Source: a bacterium
GTDB taxonomy: Bacteria > Patescibacteriota > Minisyncoccia > Phycocordibacterales > CAIZIN01
Direction of reading: 5' to 3'
Assembly: GCA_037131675.1 (NCBI GenBank)
Contig: JBAXQO010000002.1
Location: 15,166 to 79,165, forward strand
DNA length: 64,000 nt
Shown: in pieces, positions 5,955 through 63,806 of the stretch
Numbering within the stretch: the first letter of the stretch is position 1
Layout: every line of letters starts with the position of its first letter
Position numbers and translations under genes: made by a program
The notes under the pieces: generated by a model
The model's input: the letters and a program-made list of their open reading frames with translations, nothing else
Databases searched by the model: none
Told to the model about the DNA's origin: nothing

Positions 5955-7382
5955 ATGCGTTATATTTCGACACGCGGTCAAGGTGGGTCGCTTTCTTTCA
6001 ATGATGTCTTGCTGGCTGGGCTGGCTCCTGATGGTGGGCTTTACGTTCCGGAGGAGTACCCGCAACTGGCATGGAAACATATTAAGCTGATGCAAGGCTG
6101 GAGCTATCATCAAATCGCATTCCACATCATTAAGCTTTTTGTCGGGGACGACATTAATGACAACGCTCTGCGAACGATCATTAAAAAAGCTTATGAACCT
6201 CGTCTGTTTGGTAGTCTCGACATTACACCAATACAACCTCTCTCAAGAGGTGTGGGTTTGCTGAAGTTGTCGAACGGGCCAACGTTGGCATTCAAAGATG
6301 TTGCGCTACAACTTCTCGCGAATCTCATGGACTATGTTCTTGAGGAGCGCGATGAATACCTTAACATTCTTGGTGCAACATCTGGTGACACTGGCTCGGC
6401 AGCAGAAGAAGCTGTGCGAGGTCGCAAGCGGTTGCGTATCTTCATGCTCTCGCCATATGGTCGCATGACTCCATTCCAGCAGATGCAAATGTATAGGATT
6501 CACGATCCAAGCGTTTTCAATCTGGTGCCGGATGGGAATTTTGATGATTGTCAGTCAGCAGTGAAGCTTGTGAACGCTGATTCCGATTTCAAGAGGGAAT
6601 ACTCAATCGGTGCGGTGAACTCAATCAACTGGGCACGTATCATGGCTCAAGTCGTGTATTACGTCTATGGGTACACACGGATGATAACAAGTCCGCATGA
6701 ACGCCTCACTGTTTCAGTGCCATCCGGCAATTTCGGCAATGCACTTGCTGCATATGTGGCGGGAAAGATGGGTCTCAAGATCGATATTATCGTAGCTACT
6801 AACGAGAACGATGTTCTGACTGAGCTTTTCAACTCGGGACGATATCGTATTCGTAAGGGCAATGAAGTTGTGAAAACGCAGAGTCCTTCAATGGACATTG
6901 CGTCGGCATCAAACTTCGAGCGGTTCATGTTCGATCAGGTGAATCGGGATCCTCGGCGTTTGGTAAAACTATGGAAAGAGCTTTCGGCTAAAGGTGAGTT
7001 CAGTTGGAATATACGGAACGAACCCGGCTCAACAGTTCGGTTTAGGTCAGGGACGGCGACTGATGCTGAAGTGACGAAGACCATAAAGTTAATCTTCGAT
7101 CACACCGGCATCATCATCGACCCACACACCGCGGTCGCTGCAAAGGTGTTCTATGATCTGAAAGGCGATTCCAATATGGGACCGTCCTTGATTGTAGAGA
7201 CAGCTCAACCAGCCAAGTTCGAGGATGCGATTTATCGTGCTCTCGGTATTAGGATGGCGATTCCTGAAGTGTGTCGTTACTTGGAAGGGAATGACGAGAG
7301 AATTATTCGTATTAATGAAACTGACCCAGTCGTAATTGCGAATGCGGCAAAAGCAATCATTGAAGCGAATGTGAAAAAATAA
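5955..7382 (+). CDS. thrC: threonine synthase
   Basis: PLP-lysine motif GPTLAFKDVALQ and a glycine-rich PLP-phosphate loop SGNFGNA. GC content (~47%) is markedly higher than the neighbours (~27-35%). Confidence 0.85.
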   Translation: MRYISTRGQGGSLSFNDVLLAGLAPDGGLYVPEEYPQLAWKHIKLMQGWSYHQIAFHIIKLFVGDDINDNALRTIIKKAYEPRLFGSLDITPIQPLSRGVGLLKLSNGPTLAFKDVALQLLANLMDYVLEERDEYLNILGATSGDTGSAAEEAVRGRKRLRIFMLSPYGRMTPFQQMQMYRIHDPSVFNLVPDGNFDDCQSAVKLVNADSDFKREYSIGAVNSINWARIMAQVVYYVYGYTRMITSPHERLTVSVPSGNFGNALAAYVAGKMGLKIDIIVATNENDVLTELFNSGRYRIRKGNEVVKTQSPSMDIASASNFERFMFDQVNRDPRRLVKLWKELSAKGEFSWNIRNEPGSTVRFRSGTATDAEVTKTIKLIFDHTGIIIDPHTAVAAKVFYDLKGDSNMGPSLIVETAQPAKFEDAIYRALGIRMAIPEVCRYLEGNDERIIRINETDPVVIANAAKAIIEANVKK

Positions 7383-13615: not shown

Positions 13616-14200
13616 ATGGATACGTCCAACACATCTCAATCGTCAGTCAATGCAGCAGACTTCCTGGTGGAAGTTGAGAGAAAACTCAGGAAAAACTTCA
13701 AGGACTTGCCATTCAAGAGGCTCGGGGACTACCTTGGGGTTTTCGAAAAGATGCTCGATCGACGTTACCATTTTTCTTATGGTCGCACGATCGGTTCCTT
13801 GAATCAGTCTCTTGATGATATGGTATTTGTAATACCAATAATCGAGACACCCACCACCTATCGGAACGGTTCCTTGAAGAGGTTGGAGGTGGTGCAGTTG
13901 GTTCTTGAGAGGAGGCTTTGTGGGGGAGAACATGGTTGTTGGAACATACATAGGGCAAAATTTGTTCAGGTATATCCAGACACTATTCCTACAGAGTTTA
14001 ATTCCTCGAGTTCCTCAATTACTTCATGTCATAGTCCTCATGAATTTAAGGTGGAGCTTGTCAGGATTAAATTGCCCCCCAACTTTACCGAAATGGTAAA
14101 TTCTGCCATTTGTAAATGGATAGAGAATTCCATCGAAAAAAGGCGACAGACGAATCAGTCGCTCGGAAAGCTCAAAGGAGAGTTTTCAACAAAGAAATAA
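13616..14200 (+). CDS. hypothetical protein in a GC-elevated block
   Basis: 194-aa ORF with RBS aaaggaaacgagatt. GC is roughly 48%, with shadow ORFs on the opposite strand typical of higher-GC DNA. It has its own terminator. Confidence 0.5.
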   Translation: MDTSNTSQSSVNAADFLVEVERKLRKNFKDLPFKRLGDYLGVFEKMLDRRYHFSYGRTIGSLNQSLDDMVFVIPIIETPTTYRNGSLKRLEVVQLVLERRLCGGEHGCWNIHRAKFVQVYPDTIPTEFNSSSSSITSCHSPHEFKVELVRIKLPPNFTEMVNSAICKWIENSIEKRRQTNQSLGKLKGEFSTKK

Positions 14201-23426: not shown

Positions 23427-25100
23427 ATGACCCAAGACGAGGCTTTCGAAATATTAAAAACTGGAAATAATGTGTTTATCACTGGTTCAGCAGGATCTGG
23501 TAAGACACACCTTATAAACCGTTACATCGCATTTTTACGTGAACACAAAGTTGATGTTGCTGTTACAGCCTCAACTGGTATTGCAGCTACACACATGGGA
23601 GGTGTAACTATTCATTCCTGGAGCGGGCTCGGTGTGCGTGACTCACTTTCAGATTATGATTTGGACTCTCTCGAGTCTCGCCAATATTTATGGAAACGTT
23701 TTGAAAATGTGAAAGTTTTAATCATTGATGAAGTCTCAATGCTCCACCATTTTCGTTTGGATATGGTGGATAAAATCATTCGCCACTTCAGGAGAAATAC
23801 AAAACCATTTGGAGGAATTCAAGTTGTTCTTGTTGGAGATTTTTTTCAACTTCCACCTATTTCTCGAGTTGGCGAGCCAGAAGCACTTTTTGTTTTCAAG
23901 TCTGACGCTTGGCGTGATGCTGGTTTTACTGTTTGTTATCTCACAACTCAATTTCGCCAAACAGATGATGCTTATCTTTCTGTCTTAAATGCGATTCGTG
24001 CAAATGATGCAGACGATGAAGTTCGTGAACATTTGCGTAAACGTTATAAGAAAAAACCACAAATTAATATTGAACCAACTCGTCTTTATACTCACAATGC
24101 TGATGTTGATGGTGTGAATGATAGAGAGCTTGAGCTTGTCTTTGGAGAGGTTACTCAATATACAATGACCCACCGCGGCTCATCAAAACATGTGGAGCTT
24201 TTGAAAAAAAGCTGTCTTGCACCGGAAGTGCTTCGACTTAAGGTAGGAGCTAGGGTAATGTGTGTGAAAAATAATTTTGAAGTAGGGTACGTGAACGGTA
24301 CTTTAGGTATAGTGGAGTCATGTGAACCTTGGGAAGACCCAGTGATACGAACAGCTTCTGGGTTGTCAATAAAAATTCCTCGCGTGAGTTGGCAGATTAC
24401 AGATGAAGACGCAGGAAAAGTAAAAGCAGAAATTACTCAGTATCCATTGCGCTTGGCTTGGGCTATTACAATTCACAAAAGTCAGGGAATGAGTTTGGAT
24501 GCGGTAGAGGTGGACTTATCTCGTTCTTTTGAAAGAGGGATGGGTTATGTGGCGCTTTCCCGCGTGCGCACTCTAGAAGGACTCTCTCTTTTGGGTATGA
24601 ATGAAATTGCCTTTCAGGTAAACGAAGAAGTGCTCGGTTTTGACAGTGAATTAAAAGAGCTCTCGGAAATTGCCAGACAAGCACTTCGTGAGACTAGTCC
24701 TGTGGTGCTTAAGAAAACCCAAGAAGCATTTATTGCTCGAATTTCTGATGTGAAATTAAAAGAGAAAAGTAAAAAAAGAAGTACATACGATGTGACAAAA
24801 GATTTTGTGCTCACTCGCGTACCGCTAAACCAAATCGCAAAAGATAGAGACATGAGTGTGGATACTATTGTTAGTCATATTGAAAAAATAATTGAGGAAG
24901 ATACGACTCTAGATGTGTCATATTTACTTTCACATCTTTCCCCAAAAAAAATACAAAAAATTCGTGAGGCAATAGAGAAAGTAAAAGAATCTTCAGATAA
25001 AGTCTTGCTCACGCCAGTAAGGGAGATTGTTGGTGACAATGTTTCTTTTTTGGATATTCGACTTGTTCGGTTGGTTATGCAGAAAGAGGGGTTAATTTAA
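23427..25100 (+). CDS. PIF1/RecD-family 5'-3' DNA helicase
   Basis: Walker A GSAGSGKTHL, PIF1 signature GGIQVVLVGDFFQLPPI, C-terminal WAITIHKSQGMSLD, and a roughly 130-aa C-terminal extension. Confidence 0.75.
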   Translation: MTQDEAFEILKTGNNVFITGSAGSGKTHLINRYIAFLREHKVDVAVTASTGIAATHMGGVTIHSWSGLGVRDSLSDYDLDSLESRQYLWKRFENVKVLIIDEVSMLHHFRLDMVDKIIRHFRRNTKPFGGIQVVLVGDFFQLPPISRVGEPEALFVFKSDAWRDAGFTVCYLTTQFRQTDDAYLSVLNAIRANDADDEVREHLRKRYKKKPQINIEPTRLYTHNADVDGVNDRELELVFGEVTQYTMTHRGSSKHVELLKKSCLAPEVLRLKVGARVMCVKNNFEVGYVNGTLGIVESCEPWEDPVIRTASGLSIKIPRVSWQITDEDAGKVKAEITQYPLRLAWAITIHKSQGMSLDAVEVDLSRSFERGMGYVALSRVRTLEGLSLLGMNEIAFQVNEEVLGFDSELKELSEIARQALRETSPVVLKKTQEAFIARISDVKLKEKSKKRSTYDVTKDFVLTRVPLNQIAKDRDMSVDTIVSHIEKIIEEDTTLDVSYLLSHLSPKKIQKIREAIEKVKESSDKVLLTPVREIVGDNVSFLDIRLVRLVMQKEGLI

Positions 25101-38215: not shown

Positions 38216-39007
38216 TCAAGTCAAAGCTGCTACAAAGCGTGCGATGTAATATTCCAGAAATTCCTCCCTGGAGCTGTTCGCAAGGAACAGCATAATCACG
38301 TCTTCCATCGTCGCATTGTCCGAAAGTTCACCGACACGCTCCTGTTGATTCGAGAATGCCCGCTCTTCGCAGACTTCGAGAAACAGAGAGCGATCGTAGA
38401 ACAGATCCGGATTCGCGGCCAGAGTTGCCTTGATCTCTTCCGACAATGGTGTCGGCGCTCGATAGGCTTTGACTCGCTCGGTAAGCGTGGATATGAGCTC
38501 GATTTTTTCGACGACGCCGAAAAGGGATTGAGCTGTTTGACCCAGCATTCCATCGGATGTTAGCGAGAGTGTTGCGTTGAAGGTTCGTGGCACTGATTGC
38601 CATTCACCGCTCATTGCGACAGCATGCAAACCAACTTTCCATATTTCGTCGATCTCGAGGTTGTTGATGCAGAGGATTAAGCGCAAACCATGCGCCTGTT
38701 CCTTGCGGATCGTGATTGCTACACGAGCCCGCACGCCGTATCCATAGAGGATCTGACGCAGATCACTTTCGCTGTTGATTACCTTGGCACCGATCGGACG
38801 ACCAGTGCTTTTCTCTTGAACGAGGCGTTGAAGCTTATCACTGTAGAGACTGGGATTCGCGAGGACATGTTCCCGAGCCGATTTGCTTTCCGGGTATTCG
38901 TTCAGTTGATTGAAAATGCCGAGAAGGTCTCCTTTGGGCAACTGTGCTTTTTTGAAGAGCTCCAAGGCTTCCGCGGGACTCTTTGGTCCTTGAGAAGTGT
39001 TAATCAT
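38216..39007 (-). CDS. hypothetical protein in a GC-elevated block
   Basis: 263-aa ORF at about 50% GC against a ~35% background, with multiple shadow ORFs on both strands. No recognisable motifs. Confidence 0.5.
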   Translation of the reverse strand: MINTSQGPKSPAEALELFKKAQLPKGDLLGIFNQLNEYPESKSAREHVLANPSLYSDKLQRLVQEKSTGRPIGAKVINSESDLRQILYGYGVRARVAITIRKEQAHGLRLILCINNLEIDEIWKVGLHAVAMSGEWQSVPRTFNATLSLTSDGMLGQTAQSLFGVVEKIELISTLTERVKAYRAPTPLSEEIKATLAANPDLFYDRSLFLEVCEERAFSNQQERVGELSDNATMEDVIMLFLANSSREEFLEYYIARFVAALT

Positions 39008-45384: not shown

Positions 45385-46698
<1,314 letters not shown>

Positions 46699-46835
46699 TT
46701 ATTATTAATACCGCAGTATTATATAGCACTTTGTTATTTTTTGAAAAATTGACAGAGGAGTGTTTTGTGTTAATCTTTTTCATCAGACTGTTCTTGAAAG
46801 ATTGAACAGAAAACAACCAACAGGAGGAATAAATA

Positions 46836-47567
46836 GTGAGTGATGAAAATTTGAAACGTTTGGATGGCCACGATATTTCCGTGATAATGAGGATGTTCGG
46901 CTTCTTCTTTAAAAAGTTTGCTCTTGTCTTGGTCAGTCGGCCAAGCACAGGAAAAGGGAAACTCGCGGGTGTTTTGGAAAGACTTGGCTTTGTGGCTGTG
47001 TCCTGTAGTGGGGCATTGACCGAAATGGCTGAAGCGGATCCTGAAAATCCGGAAATGCAGAAAATTCTGAAGGAACTGCGCAGTGGAGAACTTGTCGAGA
47101 AACATCATGTTCTCAGGGCTGTCCGCATGAAATTGGCGTTTAATCGTGGTGACTCAGCTATCGTTTTCGACGGCTTCCCACGAAAAGATGTTCAGGCTGT
47201 AGATCTGAAGCAGATTCTCGAAGACTTAAACCTTCCGTGTTTTGCCTTGGAGCTCAGATGTACTCGTGAGGAGGCGAATGTGCGCAGGTCTCAGCGTATC
47301 CATGAGGCTAGAGAAAATGGCAACCCTCCTCGCGAAGAGGATGTTAATGTGGAAAAGTGGAATAATCGCCAAGATCAATACGAAGAACATTACGCTTCTT
47401 TGAGAAAAACTCTATCGGAATTTGCGTGTTATCGTGTGATCGAGACAACTCACGGTTCAAGGCTCGAGAATCATTGCCTTGCTCTCAGAGAGATCATGGT
47501 CTTCATTGTCCTTACTCTTCTGAGGTTGCCAAAGGCGGTAAAAGACCGTTATTTCGCAAGGGTTTAG
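46836..47567 (+). CDS. adenylate-kinase-like (NMP kinase fold) protein with a degenerate P-loop
   Basis: GTG start with RBS AGGAGG. The Adk-type motif IVFDGFPRKDVQAVDL and an LID-like R-rich segment are present, but the P-loop reads SRPSTGKGK instead of GxPGxGKGT. GC is roughly 47%. Confidence 0.55.
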   Translation: MSDENLKRLDGHDISVIMRMFGFFFKKFALVLVSRPSTGKGKLAGVLERLGFVAVSCSGALTEMAEADPENPEMQKILKELRSGELVEKHHVLRAVRMKLAFNRGDSAIVFDGFPRKDVQAVDLKQILEDLNLPCFALELRCTREEANVRRSQRIHEARENGNPPREEDVNVEKWNNRQDQYEEHYASLRKTLSEFACYRVIETTHGSRLENHCLALREIMVFIVLTLLRLPKAVKDRYFARV

Positions 47568-47577
47568 TTCAGTTTGT

Positions 47578-47620
47578 AAAGCGCAGGTTCCGAAAGGATT
47601 CCTGCGCTTTTTATTTTTAT
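47578..47620. terminator. bidirectional rho-independent terminator
   Basis: aaagcgcagg-13 nt-cctgcgcttt followed by ttatttttatttttt. Confidence 0.65.
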
Positions 47621-47626
47621 TTTTTC

Positions 47627-48289
47627 TTAATTCCTAATCGGAGCGTTTTTTATTATTTCCAGAATCTTGTCTTCGTCGTCTGTGATTGTGTATAGGTCTG
47701 TGTCTTCTGCACTAATGGTGTAGTGGTGTGAAAGCATATCTTCTTGTATGAGGGTGTTGAGGGGTTTCCAATATTCTTCGCCGACAAGAATTATTGGAAC
47801 TTTTTCAATTTTTCCAGTCTGCACAAGAGTGAGTACTTCGAAAAGCTCATCAAATGTACCAAAACCTCCCGGAAAGAAAAGATATGCCTCTGCGGCAAAC
47901 CACATCATTGTTTTTCGAGAGAAAAAGAAATTGAAATCAAGTTTTCCTGTTAAATAAGGGTTGTCTTTTTGTTCATGCGGAAGTTTTATTGTAAATCCTA
48001 TAGACTGCCCGCCTGCATCGTGAGCTCCCTTATTTGCAGCTTCCATAATACCTGGGCCTCCACCAGTCACAACAACATATTCTAATTCTTTAGCAACCCT
48101 GTATCCAATATGTTCTGCTTTTTTATAATAAACATCATCCGGTTTGAATCTTGCTGACCCAAAAAAGGTTACTGATTTTTTATAGCTATGAATATATTTA
48201 AATCCATCCTCGAATTCTTTGTGTATTGATAAAAGTCTTTCTTTCTCTGACATGTGTTCAATAGTGATCGCTTTTGTTTTTTCATTCAT
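47627..48289 (-). CDS. LOG-family cytokinin riboside 5'-monophosphate phosphoribohydrolase-like protein (TIGR00730)
   Basis: VTGGGPGIMEAANKGA and PGGFGTFDELFE signatures. The start is chosen at MNEKTK; it could instead be MSEKER at 48253. Confidence 0.8.
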   Translation of the reverse strand: MNEKTKAITIEHMSEKERLLSIHKEFEDGFKYIHSYKKSVTFFGSARFKPDDVYYKKAEHIGYRVAKELEYVVVTGGGPGIMEAANKGAHDAGGQSIGFTIKLPHEQKDNPYLTGKLDFNFFFSRKTMMWFAAEAYLFFPGGFGTFDELFEVLTLVQTGKIEKVPIILVGEEYWKPLNTLIQEDMLSHHYTISAEDTDLYTITDDEDKILEIIKNAPIRN

Positions 48290-48357
48290 ATAGAGAATAT
48301 TGTATGTGAATAACGATACTTTTGCAAAAATGAATTCTCGATGTAAAATGAAAGGAT

Positions 48358-48834
48358 ATGAAAAAACTTTCACGTAATCAAATAATAGCCGTTACTGTAG
48401 GTATAGTGTTGGTAGCTGGCTATGTTGCGTATTCATCATTTGGTTTGTCGTCTTCATTATCATTAAATAATCTTAGTTTAAATACAATGCAGCAAGGTTC
48501 AAATAATCAATCATCACAATTACTTGTAGAAGATATAACTGTAGGTACTGGTACAGAGGCTGTGGCCGGAAAGCATGTGACTGTAAATTATAAAGGAACA
48601 TTGATAGATGGAACTGTATTTGATAGTTCATATGAGCGTGGTACGCCTTTTGATTTTGATTTAGGAGCAGGACAGGTGATTGCTGGATGGGATCAAGGTC
48701 TTGTAGGAATGAAAGTTGGAGGTAAGAGAAAGCTTGTTATTCCAGCGACATTAGCATATGGAGATAGAGCGATAGGACCAATTCCTGCAAATTCCACTCT
48801 TGTATTTGAGGTTGAGCTTTTGGGAGTGAAATAA
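48358..48834 (+). CDS. FKBP-type peptidyl-prolyl cis-trans isomerase, membrane-anchored
   Basis: N-terminal TM plus the FKBP domain [18 protein letters not shown]...[21 protein letters not shown]. Confidence 0.85.
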
Positions 48835-50947: not shown

Positions 50948-51505
50948 CTATGAAGACATCGAGCAGGATGCTGTCGGAATACATAGAGTCACTAGGTCAT
51001 AGTGGGGTTTGGGATAAAGAAGAAAAGTTTGATGAGTGGTCATCGTACAGATTTCAAATCCATGTTCCGTTTCTTTGAGATAGATGTAACAGTATGTACC
51101 CTGGGCAGATTCTTTGAATGTTCCATGAGTGAGAATTATCAATTTTTTCCCAGGGCTTGGTCTTTCTGGTAGGTTTGGTCCGCTTCCGTTTTTAGTTTGG
51201 TGACTAAAGATTGCGTCTACAGACCATAGACAAAGAGGCATAATCTCGCCTTTCGCGGCAACTTCCAAAAGTTTTTCGTGTGCTACACCTGCATTGATTT
51301 GAATTTCGTCGCTTTCGAGAGCGATTGGTCCAAAGCTGAGTTTTGACGGAAGGTTGATTTGATTGAAAGGTAGAGCGTATTCTTCTGAAATTTGAGCTCT
51401 AATTTTCATCATTTCAATCAGATTACGGTCTCTGTTTATGGGCCACCGGTCAAACTCAAGACCGAGAAGCTCTTGATTTGCTGGAGTGGGTTTGAGGATT
51501 TTCAT
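50948..51505 (-). CDS. hypothetical protein
   Basis: 185-aa ORF with no recognised motifs and a terminator downstream. Confidence 0.45.
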   Translation of the reverse strand: MKILKPTPANQELLGLEFDRWPINRDRNLIEMMKIRAQISEEYALPFNQINLPSKLSFGPIALESDEIQINAGVAHEKLLEVAAKGEIMPLCLWSVDAIFSHQTKNGSGPNLPERPSPGKKLIILTHGTFKESAQGTYCYIYLKETEHGFEICTMTTHQTFLLYPKPHYDLVTLCIPTASCSMSS

Positions 51506-51640: not shown

Positions 51641-52132
51641 TTAGGCTTCAGATACTGATGTTGGTTGGGGTCGAGTAATCAAATCAATGATTTGCTTTGC
51701 AATCTCTTCTGCCTCCGGTCCTTTGTAATCGGCAAATACAAACTTTTCCCGCAGGGCTTCCATATTTGAACCTGTGAGATATGGTTTGTACTTTTCGTCG
51801 AGGTGGTCCCAAAGCATATCGCTGTAAGTATTTCTTGGGTCTGTGAGAAAGTCGATAATAACAAAGGACATATTTTTCATGTCGGATCCTTTTCGAGGAC
51901 CTAAAGTTTTCAGCCAATCTTGTGACCAGTTTTTACACATTTCTGGAAAAATTTCTTTGATTATATTGGCATCGTCCCGCATTTCGCGATAGTCCTGAAC
52001 CCTGCCGGCTCTTTCAGTGAGGAGGGCAAGTAAGTGTTGTTTCAACAAGAAAATAATATTCTCCCGTTCTATCAGTGTTAAGGTCTCTTTATGTTGCATT
52101 AAATAACTCCTTTCCGCCCATGACAATACCAC
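51641..52132 (-). CDS. hypothetical protein
   Basis: 163-aa ORF with no recognised motifs, separated from the downstream orphan by a 135-nt spacer. Confidence 0.45.
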   Translation of the reverse strand: MVLSWAERSYLMQHKETLTLIERENIIFLLKQHLLALLTERAGRVQDYREMRDDANIIKEIFPEMCKNWSQDWLKTLGPRKGSDMKNMSFVIIDFLTDPRNTYSDMLWDHLDEKYKPYLTGSNMEALREKFVFADYKGPEAEEIAKQIIDLITRPQPTSVSEA

Positions 52133-54868: not shown

Positions 54869-55504
54869 TTAACTTGTGAGGACGGCAGATGGGTCGTAGA
54901 ATGTCCACTCACTGTCGAGCCAATTGCAACGCCAATTCCACACCTCAGCAGAACAAATCCAGCATGCTGATAGAATGAAACGATTGTTACGTATCTTAAA
55001 GATCGTGCCGTCGAAGTAGATATGGGTTACTTTGCCTCTCGTCTTCTTTTTCCAACTTTCTGGAATTAGGTTTTTGTTCTTCCAAAGAGTCTGGAAAACT
55101 TTGGCGTCGAGGCGGATATTATTTGCTTCTTTGAGACGCTTCAGTTTTTCTTCGCCACCCACAACGTTCTCTCCGTCCTTGAGCATTGTCTCGAGGTGGA
55201 CATTAGTGAGGTCAATTTCGGTGAGGGCGAGACTGCGTTCGTCCTCCTCTTCGATGGTCCAGCCGTCGCCAAGGAATTTCAGGTCAAAAGGTGTAGTTCG
55301 GTCAATTGTGATGATTTTGGATTCTCCGACAATTACTCGACCGCCGTTCTTGAGGAAAGCAGTGAACTGAGCACCGGCTTCCTTTGGATGCTGAAGCGCC
55401 CACTCAACTGTTGAGTCGGGAACTTTGCTGAGGTCGACGTTGTTGTTCAGAACTCCCATAAGCCGTAAAGCTCTGTTGGGGTCTGTGATTGGCTTACTAT
55501 TCAT
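54869..55504 (-). CDS. hypothetical protein in a GC-elevated block
   Basis: 211-aa ORF at about 46% GC with plus-strand shadow ORFs and a Trp/Cys-rich C-terminus (CWICSAEVWNWRCNW). Confidence 0.45.
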   Translation of the reverse strand: MNSKPITDPNRALRLMGVLNNNVDLSKVPDSTVEWALQHPKEAGAQFTAFLKNGGRVIVGESKIITIDRTTPFDLKFLGDGWTIEEEDERSLALTEIDLTNVHLETMLKDGENVVGGEEKLKRLKEANNIRLDAKVFQTLWKNKNLIPESWKKKTRGKVTHIYFDGTIFKIRNNRFILSACWICSAEVWNWRCNWLDSEWTFYDPSAVLTS

Positions 55505-60130: not shown

Positions 60131-60628
60131 ATGAGAAAGTTATTTACCCGTTTAAGTCGGAAACTGAGTTTGATTCTGGCGTACAAACATAAAGCAAAGT
60201 GCGGTCACGAAACAAAGCTTATTGGATATACATCCGATGGTTTGTGGATGGAAATGCCTTTAAATAAAGATGGAGTGCCTGATTATTGCCTCGCATGTCT
60301 CGAAAAGCATTCCATACCATGCCCTTGCTGTGGAGAAAATATCCACGTTGGGGAGCAGATAGCTCTCGGCATCGGAGAGTCCATGCACCAGAAACAACGC
60401 GACAGATCAAGACCTATCACCGTGGTCAACTTCGAGAATAAAGTTGATGGGATATATCCTGTTTGCATGAATTGCAGCGATGTATTTAACCTTTCAGCCT
60501 GGCTTCATCCGGATGCTACAGCTGTACATTTCGGTTCTCTCATGGAGAGAGTTATCTCTTCGAAAGGTGCGGTGGTTTGCTATGATACGAGCCGTATTGC
60601 TCAAAGTTCAAGGGCGGTTACTTTCTGA
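60131..60628 (+). CDS. Cys-rich hypothetical protein in a GC-elevated block
   Basis: Strong RBS AAGGAGG 7 nt upstream; 165 aa with CxxC pairs (CLACLEKHSIPCPCCG; CMNC); roughly 45% GC. Confidence 0.5.
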   Translation: MRKLFTRLSRKLSLILAYKHKAKCGHETKLIGYTSDGLWMEMPLNKDGVPDYCLACLEKHSIPCPCCGENIHVGEQIALGIGESMHQKQRDRSRPITVVNFENKVDGIYPVCMNCSDVFNLSAWLHPDATAVHFGSLMERVISSKGAVVCYDTSRIAQSSRAVTF

Positions 60629-62226: not shown

Positions 62227-63372
62227 ATGAGCAACATAATCGGAAAAAATAAAAAACACCAAAACGGATATGAATATCTTTCTCTTTTTCCATTTCCTTC
62301 AGGTGATTTAAAAAGAAACATTTCTGAAGAACTCGTTCAAAAATCTAATATGGCACAATTTTTACTTGGAAAATTGTCTGGTATTACGGTTTTGTTGCCA
62401 GATGTGGACTACTTTATTAATGCTTATGTCGCAAAAGATGCAGCTTCTTCATCGCAGATTGAGGGTACAAAGGCAACTATGGTTGATGCGTTTGAATACG
62501 CCGCAGACCCTTCTAATGATAAAAATTCCGATGCTGATGATATTACTCACTATATTAAAGCTCTTAACTATGGTCTAAAGAGAATAAATGAAGATGATTT
62601 TCCTCTTACTCTTCGATTTATTCGAGAACTTCATAAGCAATTGATGCAGGGTGCAAGGTCAACGCATTTTGCTGATCCGGGAGAGTTTAGAAAAACTCAA
62701 AACTGGATTGGTGGTACTAGACCGGATAATGCAGACTTTGTACCTCCTACACCAGATGAACTCCCTCAATCTCTTAGTGACTTAGAAAAATTTATTCATA
62801 TGTCTTTTTCACATCCAATTTTGGATGCGGGGCTTATGCATGCCCAATTTGAAACTATTCATCCTTTCCTTGATGGGAATGGAAGAACTGGCCGTTTGTT
62901 GATTACTTTCTATCTTATTCACCACAAATATCTTGAACTCCCAGTACTATTCCTTTCTTCATATTTCAAAAGACATCAAAAAATCTATTACCAGAGTTTG
63001 AGAGAGTATCACAATGGGAATACCGCCCCTTGGCTAGAATTTTTTATAGATGCTGTTATTGAAACGGCAAAAGATGCAATAGAAGTTTCTAAGAAAGTAA
63101 CCGTCTTGAGAGATAGAGACCTAGAAAAAGTATCAATGTTTGATAAAAGAAACTCAGATACTGTTTTGAAAGTTGTTAAAAGGTTATATAAAGAGCCAAT
63201 TGTATCAACTTCAACTATTCAAGAATGGATTGAACAATCACGACCAGGTACCATTAAGTTTATTGATAGGCTCATCAAAGCTGGTATATTGGTCTTGCAT
63301 AGGAAAGGAGAAGGGTCTCGTCCCTCCCTCTATTCTCATAAGGAATATCTTAAAGTTTTTGCTGAAAAATAA
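62227..63372 (+). CDS. fic: Fic-family protein (class II, N-terminal inhibitory motif present)
   Basis: Fic motif HPFLDGNGRTGR; N-terminal SxxxEG inhibitory motif (SSQIEG); C-terminal winged-helix-like region. Confidence 0.85.
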   Translation: MSNIIGKNKKHQNGYEYLSLFPFPSGDLKRNISEELVQKSNMAQFLLGKLSGITVLLPDVDYFINAYVAKDAASSSQIEGTKATMVDAFEYAADPSNDKNSDADDITHYIKALNYGLKRINEDDFPLTLRFIRELHKQLMQGARSTHFADPGEFRKTQNWIGGTRPDNADFVPPTPDELPQSLSDLEKFIHMSFSHPILDAGLMHAQFETIHPFLDGNGRTGRLLITFYLIHHKYLELPVLFLSSYFKRHQKIYYQSLREYHNGNTAPWLEFFIDAVIETAKDAIEVSKKVTVLRDRDLEKVSMFDKRNSDTVLKVVKRLYKEPIVSTSTIQEWIEQSRPGTIKFIDRLIKAGILVLHRKGEGSRPSLYSHKEYLKVFAEK

Positions 63373-63425: not shown

Positions 63426-63806
63426 TTGTGGGAAAATTGCTTTAATTCACAAGCTGAGATGAAAAACATAAAAATCCTAACAGAAAGAATAATAGCGTTT
63501 AGAGATGCGAGAGACTGGAAACAGTTCCACAATCCCAAAGACGTTGCTTTATCTTTAGTTTTAGAAGCTGGGGAAGTTATGGAGCATTTTCAATGGAAAT
63601 CTAAAGAAGAGATGGATAAATATGTTATTGAACATAAGGAAGAAATTGGAGATGAATTGGCAGATGTTCTGTATTGGGTGCTCTTAATGAGTAATGATCT
63701 AAAGATAGATGTCCTGAAAGCTTTAGAGAAAAAGTTGAAGAAAAATGAAGACAAATATCCTGTTGAAAAGGCTAAGGGAAAACATACTAAATACAACAAG
63801 CTATAA
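63426..63806 (+). CDS. MazG-like nucleotide pyrophosphohydrolase (YpjD type)
   Basis: EAGEVMEHFQWK...IGDELADVLYWVLLMS has the MazG EExxE/D-motif layout; 126 aa. Confidence 0.7.
   Translation: MWENCFNSQAEMKNIKILTERIIAFRDARDWKQFHNPKDVALSLVLEAGEVMEHFQWKSKEEMDKYVIEHKEEIGDELADVLYWVLLMSNDLKIDVLKALEKKLKKNEDKYPVEKAKGKHTKYNKL

Follow-up and report, generated by a model that had tools for sequence, protein, structure and literature searches.

The closest described systems to the gene dealt with here are the short-LID ('lidless') bacterial adenylate kinases, represented by PF00406, NF001381, NF011100 and NF011105 and by the structures 2cdn and 3cm0, and the eukaryote-type UMP-CMP kinases, covered by TIGR01359 and the structures 1ukz and 2ukd. 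In UMP-CMP kinases, the loop is the canonical GGPGSGKGT and an equivalent of Arg36 (E. coli Adk numbering) is present, and the Adk fold is also found in AK6 (Fap7, hCINAP), an Adk-fold ATPase that has been co-opted for ribosome biogenesis. A 64-kb stretch of bacterial DNA, referred to below as the window, carries an Adk-like gene, adkL, that would encode, at a probability of about 0.6, an active accessory enzyme of the NMP-kinase fold with a remodelled acceptor site. Its sequence and context suggest a monocistronic, selectively maintained and lineage-restricted paralogue of the short-LID bacterial adenylate kinase, whose hosts form a small AT-rich clade of probably Saccharibacteria-like bacteria. 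The original prediction had placed two readings side by side, namely a divergent kinase that handles nucleotides in a changed way and an inactivated paralogue co-opted for another role; the former is now favoured by a fixed P-loop, by the invariance of those residues whose loss abolishes the function of Adk and by purifying selection, and the retained catalytic set argues against the latter.

The gene occupies positions 46836-47567 of the plus strand as an intact ORF of 243 amino acids. The GTG start behind a perfect Shine-Dalgarno sequence (AGGAGG, 46822-46827, plus strand, 8 nt upstream of the GTG) and the location in a GC-rich block (GC 0.463 compared to 0.381 for the window) were read correctly at the outset. 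The start is supported by the relatives, since the closest homologue (in locus L013, 91% identical in amino acids) has an ATG at the very codon where adkL has its GTG, and those of L012 and L001 start with TTG behind AGGAGG or AAGGAG; in both L012 and L013 it is likewise AGGAGG that precedes the start. The public annotation of the adkL protein (MEI6480083.1, named 'nucleoside monophosphate kinase' by the NCBI pipeline) is a miscalled version of 224 residues starting at Met20, which leaves the P-loop unchanged, and the public call for the homologue in L012 (P0008, 181 residues; L012:4878-5609) likewise falls short of a protein that is really 243 residues long, its TTG start being preceded by AGGAGG.

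Upstream, positions 46675-46835 form a divergent promoter region, in which the TATAAT of eno is found on the minus strand (around 46718-46723). For adkL, a putative promoter can be read from the sequence at 46749-46776 (plus strand), consisting of TTGACA (46749-46754), a 16-nt spacer and an extended -10 element, TGtTAATCT (46768-46776). The -35 box AAAATTGACA and a TGTTA(A/T) -10 region are kept in four related loci, and this conservation is a further part of the case for the promoter; a consensus promoter scanner did not report it, which is explained by a weak -10 hexamer with only 3/6 matches. In the relatives, the TATAAT of eno and the TTGACA and extended -10 of adkL are conserved and the 5' UTR of adkL (about 60 nt) is not, and no RNA or riboswitch reached the Rfam thresholds. 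Downstream, an intrinsic terminator at 47578-47625 (plus strand), shared with the convergent LOG gene, combines a 13-bp interrupted hairpin (47578-47610) with a T-run behind it; the hairpin folds at -20.8 kcal/mol (z = -5.35), and 0/200 shuffled sequences fold as well. Taken from these signals, adkL would be a monocistronic transcription unit with its own conserved putative promoter and terminator.

The neighbouring LOG gene deserves two remarks. Its mechanically called ORF (47627-48373, minus strand, 248 amino acids, GTG start) overlaps the start of the FKBP gene, and the public call of 220 amino acids starting at 48289 fits the homologues better. A functional link between adkL and this LOG/SLOG neighbour was considered and rejected: the two genes are convergent, their adjacency is lost in L001 and L015, and their synteny is not informative, given that synteny is general among these genomes.

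Regarding the fold, adkL matches the Pfam ADK family with 39.6 bits (gathering score 26.8), but it stays far below the cut-offs of all the adenylate kinase and UMP-CMP kinase models of NCBIfam, reaching 48.2 bits with TIGR01351 (cut-off 168), 48.9 with the best equivalog (cut-off 187) and 29.2, below threshold, with TIGR01359 (cut-off 207.6). An AlphaFold model built from an alignment of nine sequences has a mean pLDDT of 85 and a pTM of 0.81. The protein has the three-domain NMP-kinase fold (CORE, NMPbind and LID). The top 50 PDB matches listed by Foldseek are without exception adenylate and UMP/CMP kinases; TM-scores are about 0.8 for 2cdn, 5ycb and 2ukd, which are of the short-LID type.

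The P-loop of adkL, S34-R-P-S-T-G-K-G-K42 (46935-46961, plus strand), departs from the GxPGxGKGT consensus. In E. coli numbering, the changes are G7S (S34), A8R (R35), G10S (S37), A11T and T15K (K42, or D in other members of the family), and Pro9, Gly12, Lys13 and Gly14 are kept. It had been claimed that the Walker A glycines and the threonine are replaced, which holds for the threonine and for only two of the four glycines (G7 and G10, both to serine). The replacements at G7, G10 and T15 are fixed: SRPS[TA]GKG[KD] is found throughout the nine-member family, wherever the N-terminus is known. To call the loop 'degenerate', as was done originally, overstates the case and is the wrong term, since the variant is invariant in nine proteins that are otherwise 46-56% identical, and since the single substitutions are each found among 247 Adk-like domains taken from the 148 nearest relatives. 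In those domains, position 10 can be Ala, Leu, Ser or Cys, position 7 Ser or Ala, and position 15 Lys or Asp, the loops including GPPA.GKGT (common), GAPASGKGK, SGPAAGKGT and GKPSTGKTT, although the full SRPSTGKGK combination is absent from all 247. Neither of two observations that could have explained the loop away was made: the loop lies in frame inside the ORF and is conserved, so that no alternative start gives back a canonical one, and no characterised subfamily carries this variant. Modelling of the loop, which had been proposed together with the prediction, gave a pLDDT of 88 across it. Nonetheless, a Ser in place of the first Walker A glycine is seldom seen, which counts against the main reading of an active kinase; the literature searched contained nothing on Adk P-loop mutants (G10V).

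The remaining landmarks of the fold were examined position by position. The predicted DGFPR motif is indeed present as D112-G-F-P-R116 and is followed by Q120 (47169-47195, plus strand; residues 108-123 read IVFDGFPRKDVQAVDL); D112, R116 and Q120 correspond to D84, R88 and Q92 of E. coli Adk and are invariant both in the family and in canonical adenylate kinases. The arginine-rich LID-like segment was also recognised rightly: it spans residues 147-182 as a short helical LID (47274-47381, plus strand) that contains R150, R154, R166, D169 and R178 in the places of R119, R123, R156, D159 and R167, all of them invariant in the family, as is K40, the equivalent of K13. The LID is of the RRxxRIxxAxxxGxxPRxxD type, shared with the 'second Adk' relatives discussed below, and adds the family-specific residues N148, W175, Q179 and Y182. 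As for the NMP-binding helix, the helix announced by the original prediction exists, but its signature does not: the [ST]TGDxLR motif of the AMP site has become SCSGALTE within a remodelled stretch, S56-C-S-G-A-L-T-E-M64 (47001-47027, plus strand), in which, according to HMMER and MAFFT alignments to the Thermus and E. coli enzymes, T31 is replaced by C57, D33 by G59 and R36 by an invariant T62. Residues S56, S58 and A60-M64 of this stretch do not vary in the family, whose new invariant residues are E63, M64, P72, M74, C142, N148, W175, N212 and H213.

How much weight can be given to this pattern? In the alignment of the nine family sequences, 60/243 columns are invariant, so that the chance of finding all nine catalytic and specificity positions invariant is about 0.247^9, or ~3e-6, if independence is assumed; such a retention is very unlikely without selection for catalysis. 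In E. coli Adk, the mutants R88A, R123A, R156K and R167A have less than 1% activity and R36A has 17%, and the equivalent of the latter in human AK1, R44A, keeps 21% (PMC8297476). The only catalytic arginine lost by adkL is thus the most dispensable one. This bears directly on the idea of a catalytically dead pseudoenzyme, in which the Adk fold would have been co-opted as a nucleotide sensor or as a binding or regulatory protein. Such a protein could be suspected from the two Ser substitutions within the glycine-rich loop, from the loss of T15 and R36, and from the low scores against the curated kinase models together with fast evolution. However, the indispensable residues whose loss would define a pseudoenzyme are all there: the equivalents of K13, D84, R88, R123, R156, D159 and R167 are invariant in a protein of which three quarters changes between members, and the variant loop is fixed rather than decaying, with a dN/dS of 0.09, so that we regard a dead enzyme as improbable.

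For the active enzyme that we favour, the following scheme can be proposed. ATP would still be bound by the P-loop, which keeps G12-K13-G14 and in which positions 7, 8, 10 and 15 have become fixed as Ser, Arg, Ser and Lys, and the γ-phosphate might be transferred with the help of the retained Lys, the Asp of DGFPR and four arginines of the LID and core. The acceptor pocket, on the other hand, would have been rebuilt by the changes of Arg36 to Thr, Asp33 to Gly and Thr31 to Cys and by the new invariant Glu63, Met64, Pro72 and Met74, and so acceptor specificity or kinetics would be expected to differ from those of housekeeping AMP phosphorylation. Since R88 and Q92 have been retained, a nucleotide is still the probable acceptor.

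The family is very small. Only eight clusters were found in 5.8 billion proteins, confined to one clade; 1.84 billion representatives gave two strong family clusters, the next matches being other Adk-like proteins, the JGI metagenomes added just one further locus, and no member was found in viral contigs. Members with genomic context share the arrangement gpmI-eno (minus strand), adkL (plus), LOG (minus), FKBP (plus) and tgt, with the exception of the most divergent lineage (L001 and L015), where TPR and hypothetical genes stand between eno and adkL and the downstream genes differ. The eno/adkL/LOG slot is the same in at least five diverged genomes, and the ORF is intact everywhere. Across the same genome pairs, protein identity is 85-93% for eno, 78-86% for gpmI, 94% for tgt and 68-84% for LOG, and only 46-56% for adkL, apart from one close pair (the window and L013) at 91%; in one related MAG, eno is 86% identical to that of the window. 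Accordingly, dN is 0.36-0.57 for adkL and 0.04-0.22 for eno, gpmI, LOG, FKBP and tgt, which makes adkL evolve 3-9 times faster than its flanking genes. In the only pair that is not saturated (window and L013), dN is 0.040 and dS 0.44, and the resulting dN/dS of 0.09 indicates, at the sequence level, that adkL is under purifying selection.

Would adkL then be the only, housekeeping Adk of the organism, with an odd P-loop and a place outside the ribosomal-protein operon? The window and the related loci contain no canonical adk, as judged by tblastn and phmmer with E. coli Adk and by the family HMM, nor any second Adk-like ORF; the catalytic set is intact, including the adenine-reading Q92, and the 17% activity left to R36A in E. 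coli (PMC8297476) would make the loss of this arginine tolerable. Yet adkL, at 46-56% identity where eno, tgt and gpmI have 78-94%, evolves at a rate much too high for an Adk that is essential and present in a single copy, and its family of only eight clusters in 5.8 billion proteins speaks equally against such a role. Moreover, two of the nearest outgroup types stand in tandem with a canonical adk, and adk is reported to be well represented in another CPR phylum (PMC4508563). A housekeeping function is consequently unlikely, and adkL is plausible as a paralogue of a housekeeping adk: an accessory enzyme, as we would have it, that changes faster than its neighbours and whose alleles have been exchanged.

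The exchange is seen in L013, which is a mosaic (L013:1-1689 aligned with window 46770-48460 and with L012:4812-6620). Its adkL is 89% identical in nucleotides to that of the window and about 60% to that of L012, whereas its LOG gene is closer to that of L012 (83% in nucleotides, 90.5% in amino acids) than to that of the window (78% and 83.6%); between the window and L013, dS is 0.44 in adkL and 2.2 in LOG. This points to homologous exchange of adkL alleles among lineages. A diversity-generating retroelement was discarded as a source of the variation, as no reverse transcriptase was present among the window ORFs scanned against Pfam and the divergence spans the whole gene.

The base composition of adkL is also peculiar. 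The GC-rich block matches the adkL ORF in position, the GC3 of adkL of 0.463 compares with 0.20-0.31 in most neighbouring genes (about 0.27 being typical), and the excess falls mainly on G-ending codons (G3 26% in the adkL of the window, compared to 10-16%). In every locus, adkL has a higher GC3 (0.32-0.47) than its neighbours (0.19-0.36), and the excess has been kept in spite of synonymous sites being saturated between lineages. A GC3 of 0.46 in a genome of about 0.27 could point to a foreign gene of recent arrival or to a pseudogene in decay, the GC-rich block being an unameliorated insertion, but the gene sits in the same slot in at least five diverged genomes and is GC3-rich in all of them despite the saturation, its ORF is intact everywhere and its dN/dS is 0.09. 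Conserved synteny and purifying selection refute this explanation, to which we give hardly any credence, and the conserved position and the GC3 excess in all relatives led to the rejection of a recent horizontal transfer as the origin of the block.

Six orphan ORFs of the window are GC3-rich as well (0.37-0.55): 13616-14200 (plus), 38216-39007 (minus), 50948-51505 (minus), 51641-52132 (minus), 54869-55504 (minus) and 60131-60628 (plus). None of them has a match in Pfam, PADLOC or PHROGs, or by tblastn in the related loci examined, which for the ORFs between tgt and uvrA include the syntenic stretch of L012, and they have the appearance of strain-specific accessory genes with the same compositional oddity as adkL. 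The one after uvrC, of 165 aa, is Cys-rich, with CxxC pairs. The rest of the window is an ordinary small-genome chromosome (mraZ-mraW-ftsI-murE, thrC, copA, uvrABC, tgt, etc.), with some particularities. The threonine synthase gene (5955-7382, plus strand) has a GC of 0.47 and a GC3 of 0.49 in a genome of 38% GC, and may be a foreign acquisition in a host from which amino acid synthesis is not expected. An otherwise housekeeping stretch contains a PIF1-like helicase with a C-terminal HTH_40 domain (23427-25100, plus), and a gene for a Fic/DOC-family protein (62227-63372, plus) is directly followed by one for a MazG-like nucleotide pyrophosphohydrolase (63426-63806, plus), which may form a toxin-related or nucleotide-modifying pair.

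Fast evolution, allele exchange and the GC3 excess (mainly of G3) are left without explanation by a plain metabolic role. They might be accounted for if adkL were a kinase involved in conflict or host interaction, acting on a non-nucleotide target or on host or phage molecules and driven by an arms race: dN is 3-9-fold above the neighbours, divergent alleles occupy one syntenic slot, L013 is a mosaic, the GC3-rich signature is common to the strain-specific orphan ORFs, and new invariant residues accompany the rebuilding of the acceptor pocket. Nevertheless, PADLOC, PHROGs and viral contigs gave no match, for which an origin of adkL in a defence system or phage was rejected; there is no linked immunity or secretion partner gene, the gene is apparently monocistronic and its product has no evident signal peptide. 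Furthermore, R88 and Q92, which hold the NMP, are retained, and dN/dS is low in the only unsaturated pair. A conflict kinase is therefore quite improbable in our opinion, and the accessory nucleotide kinase is still preferred.

Outside the family, the best HMM matches (70-95 bits) are 'second Adk' copies that often lack Gly10 and the canonical NMP motif. P0020 (in L016) is encoded directly after a canonical adk of 202 amino acids and before rpsM, on a contig of 58% GC, and a P0042-like protein of 209 amino acids (in L019) between a canonical adk, which follows secY, and rpsM, on a contig of 56% GC. In both cases (L016:111-1367 and L019:1428-2675), the secY-adk-rpsM operon thus harbours a canonical adk in tandem with a divergent second Adk (loops GLPASGKGT and GKPLSGKGT, respectively), so that a second Adk beside the housekeeping one appears as a recurring arrangement, and we know of no description of this tandem paralogue class. 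These second Adks share with adkL a LID of the form N-x-RR-x-x-RI-x-x-A-x-x-x-G-x-x-PR-x-(E/D)D-L-x-V-x-x-(W/F), and they have a residue other than Gly at position 10 of the P-loop and variable NMP motifs. Unlike adkL, they keep the first glycine and Thr15, lie on GC-rich contigs (56-58%) and are physically linked to adk. In a neighbour-joining tree, the adkL family is monophyletic on a long branch, the tree assigning it no firm sister group.

A different case is P0030 (L018:6001-6606), an Adk-like gene located after uvrC on a contig of 37% GC from a related type of host, whose uvrA is 76% identical to that of the window. It shares with adkL a high GC3 (0.40 versus 0.20-0.23 in its neighbours), a non-Gly residue at position 10 and the absence of Arg36; it has an SSSGL motif and the T15D change also seen in P0004. 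Unlike adkL, it keeps the first glycine, lacks Pro9 (GAACSGKGD) and sits in a different locus; it is only 29% identical to adkL, and is a singleton with no close relatives in 5.8 billion proteins. P0030 suggests that very divergent Adk-like genes are more widespread in these bacteria. One might go further and see both P0030 and adkL as terminal branches of a class of Adk-fold kinases, hypervariable and subject to recombination, in episymbionts of the Saccharibacteria type. Their catalytic core would be frozen while the remainder of the protein, rebuilt acceptor pocket included, would diversify in conflict with hosts or phages; the acceptor would be other than the standard NMPs, and the G3-rich codon usage, common to the strain-specific orphan genes, would mark a 'flexible' gene pool. 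We regard this idea as improbable.

What would an accessory kinase of this kind be for? For another CPR phylum, the Parcubacteria, a poor representation of cmk, gmk and tmk has been reported, adk being common (PMC4508563), so a paralogue such as adkL could fill a gap in the nucleotide kinases of CPR bacteria; that it covers for a missing NMP kinase is speculation. If the main reading holds, an uncharacterised nucleotide kinase would be added to a very sparse CPR nucleotide-salvage repertoire, and the glycine-rich loop of Adk would be seen to tolerate a fixed Ser-Arg-Pro-Ser-Thr variant, which bears on the need for the P-loop glycines. The combination of fast evolution, allele exchange and GC3 excess would moreover make adkL, together with the orphan ORFs of the window, part of a variable gene pool. 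Should adkL be simply a sloppy second Adk, the finding would be ordinary.

Returning to the described systems, the short-LID adenylate kinases differ from adkL in several respects: they have the GxPGxGKGT loop where adkL has SRPSTGKGK, and Arg36, Asp33 and Thr31 in an AMP site where adkL has replaced all three; they lack its N-terminal extension of 28 residues and the C-terminal one of 20 residues found in four members, and adkL scores 3-4 times below their curated cut-offs, lies outside the ribosomal operon and evolves several-fold faster than its neighbours. From the eukaryote-type UMP-CMP kinases, adkL is set apart by its score with respect to the cut-off (29.2 versus 207.6 bits). AK6/Fap7/hCINAP, for its part, provides a precedent for a non-metabolic role of the Adk fold, as an analogy of function only.
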